64,000 nt of DNA from Eledone cirrhosa (GCA_964016885.1 OZ024745.1:109988001-110052000); one strand, 5' to 3'. Counted from the stretch's first letter, positions 42,382-53,527 are shown. Notes: generated by a model not told the origin, from the letters alone. Numbers and translations: made by a program.

Positions 42382-42530
42382 TATATATATATATAAATAT
42401 ATGTGTGTATATATATATGTGTGTGTGTGTATATATATATATGTGCGTATGTGTGTGTGTGTATATATATATATATAGTGAACTAAGATAACAAGGACGA
42501 TTGGTTACTCCTTCATTACGTTTATTGGTT

Positions 42531-42616
42531 GGTGACGTGCGTTTCGCCACTGTATCAGCTCAAGGTTCGATCTGTATCGATCTATCCCAACTCTGTAATC
42601 CGCGGCTCATCAGACC
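42531..42616 (-). ncRNA. Minimal type I hammerhead ribozyme (canonical CUGAUGA core, GUC site) in a short pLTR-like island
   Basis: Minus strand: ggu-CUGAUGA-gccgc..long imperfect hairpin..guggc-GAAA-cgcacg-UC^acc, then AATAAA. Stem I ggu/acc; stem III ACG-ca-CGU. The island (~42478-42632) is flanked by (TA)n on both sides. Confidence 0.85.
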
Positions 42617-42753
42617 CCTTGTAATGTTAATGGAAAAAAAAATATATATATACATATATACATACATATATATACATATATATATATATATACATATATA
42701 CATACATATATACATATATATATATATATACATATATACATATATATACATAT

Positions 42754-43180
42754 AGAATGAAACGAAATTTCATTTCTCACTCTTAGTACGGCACTTACTT
42801 AAATGTAAGTATGTATGTATACGTACATACATATATGTATACAGACGTACAGTAGCATGTATATATATACATACATGCACACATATATACATGCACGTAT
42901 CGGTTTACTGTGTCAGTGTTGAACAAAAAGGTGACGTGGTTGCCTAAACACTGTACGGCGTAATTCGGTTTGTTTGTTTGTTTACAAACAAACAAACCGA
43001 GCATTATAATAAATGTTCGGTAAACCGATACGTGCATATATATATATATATGTGTGCATGTATGTATATATATACATACTACTGTATGTCTGTATACATA
43101 TATGTATGTACGTATACATACATACTTACATTTAAGTAAGTGCCGTACTAAATGAGAGAAATGAAATTTCGTTTCTTTCT
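42754..43180. repeat. Fold-back (inverted) pLTR pair with ~155 bp arms
   Basis: 42754-42908 is the reverse complement of ~43020-43180. Same family as 49643-50412. Confidence 0.85.
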
Positions 43181-43547
43181 ATATGTATATATATGTATAT
43201 ATGTATATATATATATGTATATATGTATATATATATATATATGTATATATACCTACATATATATACATGTATATATATGTATATATATATGTATATATGT
43301 ATATATATATATATGTATATATATATATGTATATATACATACATATATATACATGTATATATATATATATATATGTATATATACATACATATATATATGT
43401 ATGTATACATATATATATATATACATATATATATACATAAATATATATATATACATATATACATATAAATATATATATATACATATATACATATAAATAT
43501 ATATATATACATATATATATATATACATATATATATATACATTAAAA

Positions 43548-43846
43548 ATCAATCTGTGAACGCAGAAGTAAATATTTCGAAAAAAGTTGCAACCGAAGGA
43601 AAACAGGAAGACGATACTTTGGTTCATGGAGACGTTCCCTGGCAAGGAACGGAAAAGAACGAAGATAATACGTCATTATCTGGAGCGATTGGGAACAATT
43701 ACATGCAAAGACAAAACCACATTTATGGTATAAAAGAAGTCGTAGACTAAAATTCTATTTCAGAAACCAAATGATTCTCGGCTTCAGAGTTAAGATTAAT
43801 GTAAATAAATTACAGAGGTTATTTACTTCTGCGTTCACAGATTGAT
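43548..43846. repeat. 27-bp perfect inverted repeat enclosing ~245 bp
   Basis: atcaatctgtgaacgcagaagtaaata / tatttacttctgcgttcacagattgat. Confidence 0.85.
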
Positions 43847-43853
43847 ATTTTTT

Positions 43854-43904
43854 AGTTTCAGAAGATCCCGTTGAGGGTGAAAGCAACGATTCTTTGCTTA
43901 AACT
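43854..43904 (+). ncRNA. Hammerhead ribozyme variant (CAGAAGA core, CUU site)
   Basis: aguuu-CAGAAGA-uccc guuga gggu-GAAA-gcaa cgauucu uugc-UU^aaacu. Stem I is 5 bp perfect and stem III is 5 bp. The downstream sequence recurs at 2843-2968. Confidence 0.7.
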
Positions 43905-44010
43905 TTAATCTGTTATTTTAATAAATATTTGCTCTAGGGTTCTTATATATTTGATATATATTTATCCCTCTTTGGATTTTAGTCTTCAAATTTATTATTA
44001 TTATTATTAC

Positions 44011-44385
44011 TATATATATGTATATATATATATATGTATATATGTATATATATATATATATATATATATATATATATATATATATATGTGTATATATGTA
44101 TATATATATATATATATATGTATATATATATATGTATATATATATAGATATATATGTATATATATATATGTATATATATATATATATGTATATATATATG
44201 TATATATATAGATATATATGTATATATATATGTATATATATATATATATATATATATACATATATATGTATATATATATATGTATATATATATTTATATA
44301 TGTATATATATATATATATATATATATGTGTGTATATATATATGTATATATATATATATAAGTATATATATGTATATATATATAC
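44011..44385. repeat. (TA)n/(TATG)n microsatellite
   Basis: Direct reading. Confidence 0.95.
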
Positions 44386-44587
44386 AAATTTTAGTACAGC
44401 ATTAACCAAGCTTTAGGCTGCGGCTAAGCTAACGAATGCAGCTTAGCACTCGACGGAGAGTAATACCCCAGAGTTATAACAATACGTTTAGACAGCTTTG
44501 CAAATCAAATATAGCGACCGGCAGTCGAGCCGCATTGCCATAGCAACGAAAATATCTGAATTCAGGGAAAGATTTATGTATATATAT

Positions 44588-45014
44588 ATATTGTTATACT
44601 TTGGGAGGGTCATATTGCCAATAAGAAACACACACTCCAATTTATTATAAATTAAATTTATAAATTTAAGAAATTTGTAAATTTCCGGTTGGTTGGTTCC
44701 ACAACCGGACGGTTGTTCATATATTGTCAAAGTTCTTTCGTCACACATTCTGTGACCTCTTCAGTGTCTGGGGATTCTTTTCTTTGTTTTGTGCCTCTCC
44801 TTTGTTCTGTGTGTTGACAACACACACAAAAACAAGATGGCGTAGGACAGAATAAAGGAGAGGCTTTGACAATATATGAACAACCGTCCGGTTGTGGAAC
44901 CAACCAACCAACCGGAAATTTACAAATTTCTTAAATTTATAATAAATTTGAGTGAAAGCATTTGGTGCGTGTGTTTCTTATTGGCAACATGACCCTCCCA
45001 AATTATAACAATAT
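44588..45014. repeat. Fold-back pLTR pair (~145 bp arms) with an inner 18-bp inverted repeat
   Basis: 44588-44732 versus 44864-45014. Inner repeat gcctctcctttgttctgt / acagaataaaggagaggc. Confidence 0.85.
44725..44769 (-). ncRNA. Degenerate hammerhead (CUGAAGA core)
   Basis: Minus strand: agaca-CUGAAGA-g gucaca gaaug ugugac-GAAA-gaac-UU^ugaca. Stem II is 6 bp with one unpaired G; stem I has 2 mismatches. Confidence 0.5.
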
Positions 45015-51321: not shown

Positions 51322-51370
51322 TTGCTCCGAAGAATCCAAACCTCGGTTTGGAGGAAACAATTGTAAGCAA
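51322..51370 (+). ncRNA. Minimal hammerhead (CCGAAGA core variant, palindromic stem III ACAAUUGU, GUA site)
   Basis: uugcu-CCGAAGA-a uccaaac cucg guuugga g-GAAA-caauug-UA^agcaa. Stem I is 5 bp and stem II is 7 bp. Confidence 0.8.
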
Positions 51371-51548
51371 ATAAATGATTTAAACTGAACTTTGATTCAT
51401 GTAATTTCTATAATTTCTATATATTTTTATATATATATATTTTATTTTTCTCCCTATTTCCTTTTGGCCCGTTTTTTTTCAGCCTCACTTTCATATTGCC
51501 TAAATTTTGTTTTCAAATCCATATTTAATAAATACACCATGTTTTTTA

Positions 51549-51602
51549 TTCATTCTGACGACAGACACAACATCTGTATTCAAGAAACCACTGGTAAATG
51601 AA
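51549..51602 (+). ncRNA. Damaged copy of the 46072-46132 hammerhead (about 7-nt deletion in stem II)
   Basis: uucauu-CUGACGA-cagacacaacaucuguauucaa-GAAA-ccacugg-UA^aaugaa. The 5' arm of stem II (ctgaaga) is missing relative to the inverted partner. Confidence 0.6.
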
Positions 51603-51632
51603 ATAATTATCTTATGTTGTTTATTACATAAC

Positions 51633-52156
51633 TATATATATATATATATATATATATATATATATATATATATATATATATATATATATATATATATATA
51701 TATATATATATATATATATATATATATGTATATATATATGTATATATGTATATATATATATATATGTATATATATATTTATATATATATGTATATATATA
51801 TGTATATATATATATATATGTATATATATATATGTATATATATATGTATATATATATGTATATATATATATGTATATATATATATGTATATATATATATG
51901 TATATACATATGTATATATGTATATATATATATGTATATATATATATGTATATATATATATGTATATATATATGTATATATATATATATATATATATATA
52001 TATATATATATATATATATATGTATATGTATGTATATGTATATATATATATATATATATATATATATGTATGTATATGTATATATATATATATATATATA
52101 TATATATATATATATATATATGTATGTATGTGTATATATATATATATGTATATATA
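51633..52156. repeat. (TA)n/(TATG)n microsatellite
   Basis: Direct reading. Confidence 0.95.
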
Positions 52157-52237
52157 AAGGTTCAAGTTTTTGCAGGAAGAACTTGAACTGTTAAGATCTT
52201 CTTCCTGAATATGTCAATATTTATAAAACAAACTTTG

Positions 52238-52298
52238 TATTTTATCTGATGAGAGCGTACCAAAATTTTGGTACCCTTGAAATATATATAATAGAATA
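52238..52298 (+). ncRNA. Minimal hammerhead (CUGAUGA core, (AU)n palindromic stem III, AUA site)
   Basis: uauuuuau-CUGAUGA-gagcguaccaaaauuuugguacccuu-GAAA-uauaua-UA^auagaaua. Stem I is 8 bp with one GU; stem II is near-palindromic. Confidence 0.8.
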
Positions 52299-52455
52299 AA
52301 TATGGTTTTATAATTATAGTTTCCATTTATTTAATATCATTGATATTATACTGCAGAAAACTTGTTGAGTGCTTCGAATCAGTTATAAATATATATATTT
52401 GATGAATTACCAACAAATTAAATATCCCTTTTGCTTATATGTATATAAGACACAT

Positions 52456-52797
52456 GGAGGCACATGGCTTAGTGGTTAGAGCATTGGCCTTGCAATCGAA
52501 GGGTTGTGAGTTCAATTCTCAGACCGGGTGATGTGTTGTTTCCTTGAGCAAGACACTTTATTTCACATTGCTCCAGTTTACTCAGCTGTAGAAATGAGAT
52601 GATAGGGACTGGGGTCCCTATCATTCCACTGAAAAGTGGTCGTGGAGGTGCCACGGTAAAAAAGCACCCAGCACTCACTGTAAATGAGGTTGGTGTTAGG
52701 AAGGGCATCCAGCTGTAGAAATCAAGCCAGAATCAGTTCCCGTCCCACCCTTGCAAGCAGGGAAAAGTGGACGTCAAATGATGATGAATGATGATGA
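52456..52797 (+). mobile_element. SINE family B
   Basis: Full copy. Confidence 0.9.
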
Positions 52798-52849
52798 TAT
52801 ATATGTATGTATATATATATATATGTATATATATATATATATATAATAA

Positions 52850-53527
52850 TATTATTTATAGTTATGTATACACTATATACAACTACAAACAGGAAAGGTC
52901 AGTAATACATTACTACCTTATTACGCGTAAGTAAAATAGCTCAATGTAAATACATCAGCTGTTTTACAGAGCAGGAATATAAATTATCACACTACATCCA
53001 CCATAAACTCATAATTTTAATACACAAACATCTTTGCTTCCTTGATATGCTTGTAAATTTATGTTATTTTATGTGATACCTTTGCCATGAAGTAATTATA
53101 TATGCCTACTACCATTGCTTGTTTCCTTCCTGTATATGCCTAACGCATTTGCACTCTCTATACGCTTGCATATGTACTGCTAGTGTCCTCGTTTTACGAG
53201 TAACTTTCTACCTTAATGCCTCTTTAATTATTATACTATTCCCTTGTAATCTCTGTCGCATGCATTCCACTCTGTGCCTTTTTAATTTTTAATTTTAATT
53301 ATTGTACAATTCTCTTGTAATCTATGTTGTATCCATTCCACTCTGTAAATACGAAACTGTTCTTGGCAACATTAATATCCAAGTATCTATATGATTGTTC
53401 ATTTGAATAGGAGGTTAATTATATGTACAAACATTGCTAGTGCTCCGATGATTCCAAACGAAAGTTTGGAAGAAACGATTGTCAGCAATAAAAGGATTTG
53501 AACATAGCTCTGATTATTGTGTAATTT
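52850..53527 (+). mobile_element. PLE 3' end remnant (long 3' region plus pLTR with hammerhead)
   Basis: Bounded by (TA)n on both sides. It ends in hammerhead 53441-53487 plus AATAAA and is homologous to the insert at 51220-51420. Confidence 0.6.
53441..53487 (+). ncRNA. Minimal hammerhead (CCGAUGA core variant, GUC site)
   Basis: ugcu-CCGAUGA-uuccaaac GAAA guuuggaa-GAAA-cgauug-UC^agca, followed by AATAAA. Stem II is a perfect 8 bp with a GNRA loop. Its flanks are homologous to those of the 51322 motif. Confidence 0.85.

Follow-up and report, generated by a model that had tools for sequence, protein, structure and literature searches.

An 11-kb block (positions 42478 to 53527) of a 64,000-nt stretch of the Eledone cirrhosa genome (GCA_964016885.1 OZ024745.1:109988001-110052000; hereafter the window, with positions counted from its first nucleotide) carries a dense series of hammerhead ribozyme motifs. 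We found that this block is very probably a nest of truncated or inverted 3' ends of at least seven coding families of Penelope-like elements (PLEs), together with one non-coding tandem unit of 430 nt, lying in or against (TA)n tracts and likely grown by repeated target-primed insertion. It is a real feature explained by known biology, namely truncated PLE ends in a preferred target. PLE ends saturate this genome, and the nest, as one local peak among them, is not news alone. The novelty lies in the families themselves, in a large retrozyme that targets TA, and in a hammerhead load that exceeds the published figures with which it was compared.

Nine motifs were observed, with first core bases at 42613(-), 43859(+), 44764(-), 46126(-), 50180(+), 51327(+), 51555(+), 52246(+) and 53445(+). 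The coordinates given for them in an earlier, sequence-only reading are the stem-I ends of these same motifs, all of which proved real. A descriptor for type I hammerheads recovered seven of the nine in the block, compared with an average of 0.015, and never more than 1, over 200 shuffles preserving local dinucleotide composition, a density unlike that of shuffled AT-rich sequence; five decoy cores gave no match there. The strictest, initial descriptor had matched nothing, and its thresholds were loosened with these motifs already known (an intermediate version gave six matches in the block and none in 100 shuffles). Independent of this tuning are the decoy cores and a background of forty 10-kb stretches taken at fixed steps on contigs C1-C4, the smaller chromosomes being represented by the window and by genome-wide pattern counts. 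In these 400 kb, 54 motifs were found, against 1.05 in 20 shuffled sets and 1 to 3 with decoy cores. The two motifs that failed the descriptor are damaged members of intact families: a base is substituted in stem I of 44764 and 7 nt of stem II are missing from 51555, and the best genomic copies of their families passed in 18 of 19 and 15 of 19 cases, respectively. A CYGANGA..GAAA..UH core closed by stems I to III was present in seven of the nine; the motif of family C, with an A at position 4, falls outside CYGA. Stem III was fully self-pairing in four of the seven intact motifs, had one central mismatch in family F, paired at 6 of 8 positions in A and was longer in C. The remaining 53 kb of the window, described earlier as nearly motif-free, contained no descriptor match. 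As for two reported half motifs, that near 43575 repeats in inverted orientation the 30 nt that lie upstream of motif 43859 and lacks the core, while that near 50555 corresponds to the 3' half, inverted, of a tenth and atypical motif at 50585(+), with a stem II of about 95 nt and a stem I that does not abut the core.

Family-by-family searches, as the sequence-only reading had proposed, showed each island to be a dispersed repeat whose best copies, on many chromosomes, are 85-100% identical. Within a family the 3' end is fixed, and what follows it is either (TA)n or a fixed-length tail (about 102 nt in A, 57-59 in D, 60-68 in F and 102-105 in J), the tail signature given for PLEs in passages of PMC11167929. 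There are two discrete 3' ends per family, and the 5' end is variable, often with an inverted piece. Eight families were searched, and in seven (A, C, D, F, J, K and M) longer copies ran upstream into a GIY-YIG endonuclease gene, and the islands are thus ordinary truncated PLE ends. For A, a same-strand GIY-YIG with a CxCX5C linker lay upstream at loci L003 and L019 (2 of 29 loci); for C, the endonuclease of L044 was joined to the 3' end via L046 and L045; the link was found in L063 and L069 for D, in the window itself and in L073 and L074 for F (L080 was also compared), in L115 and L120 for J, in L144 and L149 for K (L139 was also compared) and in L163 and L164 for M. In A, C, F, J, K and M, the endonuclease was on the hammerhead strand and had the Hydra-type linker or C-terminal motifs (CxCX5C in A, C, F, K and M, C-terminal motifs only in J).

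The Hydra clade is defined in section 11 of Craig et al. 2021 (PMC8557442) by RWK, DKT, CxCX5C, CxxC and CxH, the absence of CCHH and a hammerhead. The endonuclease hallmarks of this clade were found (C-terminal GIY-YIG, CxCX5C, no CCHH, CxxC and CxH around conserved E and N), as were a sense-strand hammerhead in the pseudo-long terminal repeat (pLTR) and insertion into (TA)n. RWK and DKT without GxKF/Y were found in the open reading frames (ORFs) covered by that test, two intact ones of 715 amino acids (aa) in a sister family of F (L211:1396-3540 and L212:1427-3571). These also have CxCX5C, CxxC and CxH, lack CCHH and have a sense-strand hammerhead about 260 bp upstream, and their family may have been active recently. 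Pfam recognised neither the PLE pieces nor the 715-aa ORF, so the clade calls rest on motifs. Judged by these, coding Hydra-clade PLEs are the source of A, C, F, J, K and M, which are 3' ends of such elements, inverted or truncated on the 5' side, and D is a coding PLE of another clade, its CCHH-type cysteines having led us to reject a Hydra assignment. We also rejected all seven as retrozymes without long terminal repeats (non-LTR retrozymes), as they lack a non-coding tandem unit. The hammerheads are indeed of PLE type and come from several families. The view that the nest consists of mostly non-coding derivatives was in contrast mostly wrong, and positions 47900-49590 themselves carry PLE reverse-transcriptase and GIY-YIG pieces. 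Nor are the families, put at about seven, all unrelated: J and M are relatives, and the motifs reported at 46072 and 51549 are inverted ends of one insertion.

Non-autonomous ribozyme-bearing elements, which had been proposed for the nest at large, are represented by one family, H/B. No ORF preceded the unit in any of the 43 H copies that reach its head; 37 of these were preceded by the unit's own 3' end (strict motif) and 3 by a shortened motif, and the other 3 by sequence that reads as the family's own inverted DNA. Tandem spacing was mostly 420-433 nt (466-502 nt in subfamilies), with runs of up to eight, and the longest Met-started frame was 68 aa. The H circle folded at -127.7 kcal/mol, compared with -91.2 +/- 6.3 for 50 shuffles, that is, 5.8 standard deviations lower. 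H/B has 36% GC and is mostly dispersed (37 of 58 loci are single), with ends in (TA)n and PLE-style inversions. Fragment B is 78% identical to 50216-50335 and has copies at 96-97% in L205 and L115, the former with a full H-type motif. The retrozyme features found in H/B are head-to-tail units each with a type I hammerhead (the published range being 150-450 bp), no coding capacity, GC below 50% and a stable self-paired circle. By its sequence, H/B fits a non-LTR retrozyme, as a non-coding, non-autonomous tandem unit of about 430 nt. Endonucleases beside two H copies were considered as H's own and rejected: in L092 the two are joined by short microhomology, and the piece in L100 matches the neighbour of an F locus.

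Other tandem units came to light at the loci collected. L195:4045-9164 (C3, near 55.0 Mb) holds 17 hammerhead-bearing units with a 310-bp period in two opposite orientations, which we classify as a second, classical non-LTR retrozyme family. L199:283-1242 has another small hammerhead three times, two of them in tandem 467 bp apart, possibly a third non-coding unit. One tandem of C, of 363-371 nt, occurs in L042 and L049, which share flanks.

In 22 K-type motifs, 9 of 19 pairs changed on both sides, a score attained by none of 500 shuffles; across K lineages the core is conserved and the stems covary, palindromic stem III included. The kept core and covarying stems indicate selection on the source elements, not on the nest stubs, most of which are probably inert. 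Position 4 varies between families: J has U4C, and U4A was kept in all 34 descriptor matches of family C. In the passages of PMC3088659 on the subject, U4C had lower activity in vitro yet supported a viroid in vivo; U4A was not found in those passages or in the other literature searched, and a search of supplements gave neither U4C nor U4A, which is weak evidence. Lunse et al. 2017 may list position-4 variants. From published work, cleavage as dimers would be expected of the source-element hammerheads.

The preference for TA targets is well supported. Among background motifs, 32 of 35 had (TA)5+ within 400 nt downstream and 23 of 36 had it upstream, compared with 25-27% at random sites, and TA tracts numbered 33.5 per 10 kb in the nest region versus 10.4 in the background, so that the proposed tie to (TA)n holds. 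The inverted F copy has an internal TA run in which J is lodged, and about 17 bp of this run are duplicated. Different families also occur together: 12 of 54 H loci had a C motif within 5 kb where 2.1 were expected, about 6-fold (maximum 8 in 5,000 shifts), under a shift control that preserves density at the 20-200 kb scale.

These data suggest how the nest may have formed. From known PLE biology, the endonuclease would nick (TA)n, and reverse transcription would start at one of two sites near the RNA's 3' end and usually stop early or switch strand. Either outcome would leave a stub of 150-700 bp, still with its hammerhead, since that motif is situated about 50-280 nt from the end. To judge from this locus, each insertion would duplicate part of its TA target and import TA runs of its own, so that the nest would offer more targets as it grew; with J in the TA run of F as one direct example, we can reasonably infer such self-feeding growth. 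Hammerheads of the source elements are predicted to act as dimers, paired through the palindromic stem III, when they cut precursor RNA. As for the H/B unit, it is predicted to be cut to monomers, to circularise and to borrow the protein of a TA-targeting PLE.

Several results weigh against this account. K pairs cluster weakly (p 0.02-0.16), so that the proposed clustering of families holds for H and C and not clearly for K. Another window family was found within 1.5 kb at 41 of 162 loci, a modest excess over the roughly 18% expected (30 probe hits in 400 kb). Both results, and an overdispersion of motif counts that regional tolerance could explain, would suit passive accumulation, in which insertions survive together in gene-free TA-rich DNA with neither mutual attraction nor self-feeding. 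We hold this rather unlikely, given that the H-C enrichment exceeds local density, that J entered a run brought by F and that TA tracts are about three times as dense in the region as in the background. Motif count and TA content per stretch were also not significantly correlated (rho 0.27, p 0.10, 39 stretches). The link of M to its endonuclease runs through sharing among M loci rather than a single unbroken copy, and no partner PLE was identified for H/B. The idea that 5' ends concentrate at the predicted cut sites is unsupported: starts are widely spread, with a few in H and D that fall within 5 nt. Stem covariation across genomic copies, clear in the K group, is weak in the J/M alignment (1 of 15 pairs, attained by 155 of 500 shuffles), and the aligned motifs were chosen by a descriptor that itself favours pairing. 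In addition, the anole element described in passages of PMC11167929, the one PLE tested in vitro, did not need hammerhead cleavage for insertion in that setting.

The density of the nest has to be read against the load of the whole genome. Locus L195, with 17 of the 54 background motifs in one tandem array, was excluded from the density fit, and the remaining 39 stretches gave 0.95 motif per 10 kb (bootstrap 0.59-1.33), which extrapolates to about 280,000 intact motifs in 3.0 Gb (170,000-390,000). Exact pattern matches genome-wide numbered 24,001 for H/B, 23,710 for C, 76,263 for K with its sister families, 5,446 for J and M together and 6,826 for D, in total 136,246, with each reversed control giving 0. 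These patterns do not require every stem, count inverted duplicates twice, include any assembly duplicates and leave families A, F and I outside the counts. The H pattern occurred four times in the 400-kb sample, predicting 30,000, consistent with the number counted; first-look candidate counts (1,081-3,387), which fall about tenfold below copy number, were left aside. Motif clustering over all collected loci gave 20 recurring motif types.

The sequence-only reading took the block for a special insertion hotspot filled mainly by undescribed non-autonomous ribozyme-bearing elements. The contrast between seven intact motifs in 11 kb and the background, about 6-fold, speaks for this, as do the non-autonomous H/B and family I, which showed no coding link among the three copies examined. 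The links of most families to GIY-YIG genes and their variable 5' ends do not agree with it, and the whole window, with 7 motifs or 1.1 per 10 kb, stands at the genome average. Because the genome averages about one intact motif per 10 kb, hundreds of comparable nests (at least 7 motifs per 11 kb) are expected, about 900 by a negative-binomial fit, rough with its 39 points, and 30 by Poisson. The hotspot is thus largely refuted and improbable, and the nest itself is likely ordinary for this genome.

It is still less probable that the nest is a host-recruited RNA-processing locus, whose stacked ribozymes would cut a host transcript. Five of the seven intact motifs are on the plus strand, which would suit such a role, but the islands are 91-100% identical to dispersed copies, orientations are mixed, two motifs are damaged, and the intact share (7 of 9) is on par with that of dispersed copies (124 of 162). 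Rfam gave nothing at gathering score over 42200-53800, and thus no hammerhead there; among the matches listed (150 of 352 weak ones) there was no hammerhead family, and nearly all were microRNA models on TA repeats. ARAGORN found no tRNA gene. That the folds are chance products of AT-rich palindromic sequence, as this Rfam result and the minimum-energy fold of most monomers, which differs from the hammerhead, might suggest, is refuted by the shuffled, decoy and reversed controls and by the compensatory changes in the K motifs.

Rather than being an undescribed set of elements, most families in the nest resemble a described group. They share with the Hydra clade, as presented in parts of PMC8557442, the RWK and DKT motifs (seen in the F-sister ORFs), the CxCX5C linker, the lack of CCHH, a canonical hammerhead, (TA)n insertion, truncation, inversion and tails. 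An octopus member in the supplement of that paper, Hydra-1_Obim, prefers (TA)n and has the same hammerhead stem III as family F (ACCA-N-TGGT); the F-sister ORF is close to the printed part of its protein, compared by eye, a likeness in keeping with the cephalopod label of the sequence-only reading and with an octopod host. The sections concerned describe one cephalopod Hydra family, without a pLTR, whereas at least six families with different stems and with U4C and U4A cores lie within 11 kb here, and a Hydra-type linker probe gave 44,600 first-look candidates in the genome. Published PLE-type hammerheads, in the sources consulted in part, are alike in having a type I fold, an extra base that follows position 9 and a palindromic stem III, in forming many families within a genome, and in occurring mostly as single motifs that belong to truncated PLEs, with pairs on opposite strands 100-700 bp from each other; they differ in number, with thousands per genome compared with at least 136,246 pattern matches here. 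H/B is like the animal non-LTR retrozymes of Cervera and de la Pena 2020 (PMC7229834) and of Li, Clavereau and Pollet 2026 (bioRxiv 10.64898/2026.07.22.740005), in the passages that describe them, in being a non-coding tandem of 420-500-nt units that each have a type I hammerhead, in its GC content of 36% and in a circular fold that is stable. It differs in being mostly dispersed, with (TA)n ends, PLE-style inversions and a unit at the long end of the range, and is known here from DNA alone. Neptune/Nematis-type PLEs are a further close system, for comparison with which no reverse transcriptase was recovered here.

Counts given in parts of the published record are about 2,000 and 1,300 for Schistosoma, 4,000 for coelacanth and 9,000 for Xenopus tropicalis, and for non-LTR retrozymes over 6,000 in coral, about 5,000 in mussel and up to 120,000 in axolotl, with its 28-Gb genome (PMC7229834; bioRxiv 10.64898/2026.07.22.740005). 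The counted load here is above these figures, in a genome about one-tenth the size of the axolotl's, although Lunse et al. 2017, cited through the review PMC6765202, may give larger counts. We found no hammerhead survey of cephalopods in the literature, Craig et al. 2021 alone being relevant; the main text of a 2026 Octopus vulgaris repeat paper (PMC13282606) does not contain "hammerhead" or "ribozyme".

We tentatively propose, as a possibility rather than a firm conclusion, that this is the densest animal hammerhead load yet reported (about one intact motif per 10 kb, about 280,000 in all, at least 20 families), built by Hydra-clade PLEs and a 24,000-copy retrozyme using their TA-targeting machinery. 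If so, the elements would build their own landing sites by duplicating and importing TA runs, and may help make the genome so rich in microsatellites; many introns would hold sense-strand ribozymes, and host tolerance of them may depend on weak, dimer-only cleavage, as predicted. In H/B a retrozyme has the insertion signatures of PLEs, which is relevant to the machinery that moves animal retrozymes, a question made testable by young families with intact ORFs in the same genome. Whole U4C and U4A lineages persist in thousands of copies, a natural experiment on whether cutting is required of PLE hammerheads.

The anatomy of the nest is given in Table 1. Positions 45978-51632 are largely one F insertion. 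On the minus strand are its pLTR, its 3' untranslated region (UTR) and its endonuclease; a reverse-transcriptase piece is inverted, as is a second pLTR, which lies at the far end. Inside the insertion lie, as later arrivals, the fragment of another PLE, H and I, with J within the inverted F copy; A, B, C, D, K and M flank the F block, in TA tracts.

Table 1. Features of the hammerhead nest, in window coordinates.
Feature	Positions	Strand	Description
Family A	42477..42641	-	165-bp 5'-truncated 3' end, assigned to Hydra-clade PLE; core 42613 to 42534, 61-nt stem II
B	42755..43179	.	Fold-back fragment of H/B non-coding family; starts just past predicted cut site, without hammerhead
Long degenerate (TA)n tract	43180..43541	.	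Separates B from C
Family C	43545..44008	+	3' end assigned to Hydra-clade PLE, inverted 5' piece 43545-43823; hammerhead 43859-43899, core CAGAAGA (U4A)
Long degenerate (TA)n tract	44011..44384	.	Downstream of C
Family D	44588..45083	-	3' end assigned to coding non-Hydra PLE with endonuclease of CCHH type; hammerhead 44764 to 44730, substitution in stem I; tailed inverted copy 44864-45083
Family F main body	45978..48523	-	Endonuclease ~47900-48520, TA-rich 3' UTR ~1.8 kb, pLTR with hammerhead 46126 to 46078; 81% to intact sister ORFs in L211, L212
C-terminal reverse-transcriptase piece of F insertion, inverted	48573..49031	+	86% to L211, L212
Fragment of another PLE	49041..49592	-	Internal deletion; GxKF motif; no hammerhead
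Family H	49646..50430	+	Non-coding ~430-nt head-to-tail unit, partial tandem and inverted piece; hammerhead 50180-50210
Family I	50501..50890	+	Repeat with atypical tenth motif from 50585 to ~50700 (stem II long, stem I displaced, stem III with two changes) and inverted duplicate of 3' half (50502-50566)
Inverted F 3' UTR and pLTR	50936..51632	+	Hammerhead 51555-51596, 7 nt of stem II lost; split by J
Family J	51221..51415	+	3' end assigned to Hydra clade, in internal TA run of F; hammerhead 51327-51365, core CCGAAGA (U4C); young, 98-100% to best copies, ~17-bp target duplication
Longest (TA)n tract	51633..52156	.	Between inverted F end and K
Family K	52157..52447	+	3' end assigned to Hydra clade; hammerhead 52246-52290, palindromic stem III
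Family M, relative of J	52873..53526	+	3' end assigned to Hydra clade, inverted tail piece 52873 to ~52990; hammerhead 53445-53483, core CCGATGA

In the family I motif (50571-50700), the stem-I strand lies about 10 nt off the core in all three other copies examined, with the same stem II of about 95 nt; this may be an atypical hammerhead or a decayed one. A small hairpin (52157-52200 in the window), about 120 nt ahead of the cut site, is where many K copies begin, as do inverted duplicates; the hairpin may cause fold-back during reverse transcription. Outside the nest, a 51-bp piece of the family C 3' end occurs at 2843-2893 (98% identity). An abundant repeat of about 325 bp at 52454-52777 (also at 19946, 30384 and 34324) is a tRNA-derived short interspersed nuclear element, its copies at 30389 and 34333 matching Rfam tRNA. 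Further repeats without hammerheads lie in the nest at 44386-44574 and 45200-45930, both with copies at other loci, and a repeat of about 110 bp at 45091-45199 recurs across the window in more than 10 further copies. Positions 41885-42381, on the nest's left edge, are a remnant with a weak match to a transposase helix-turn-helix (E 0.07), which we take to be like a Tc1/mariner element.

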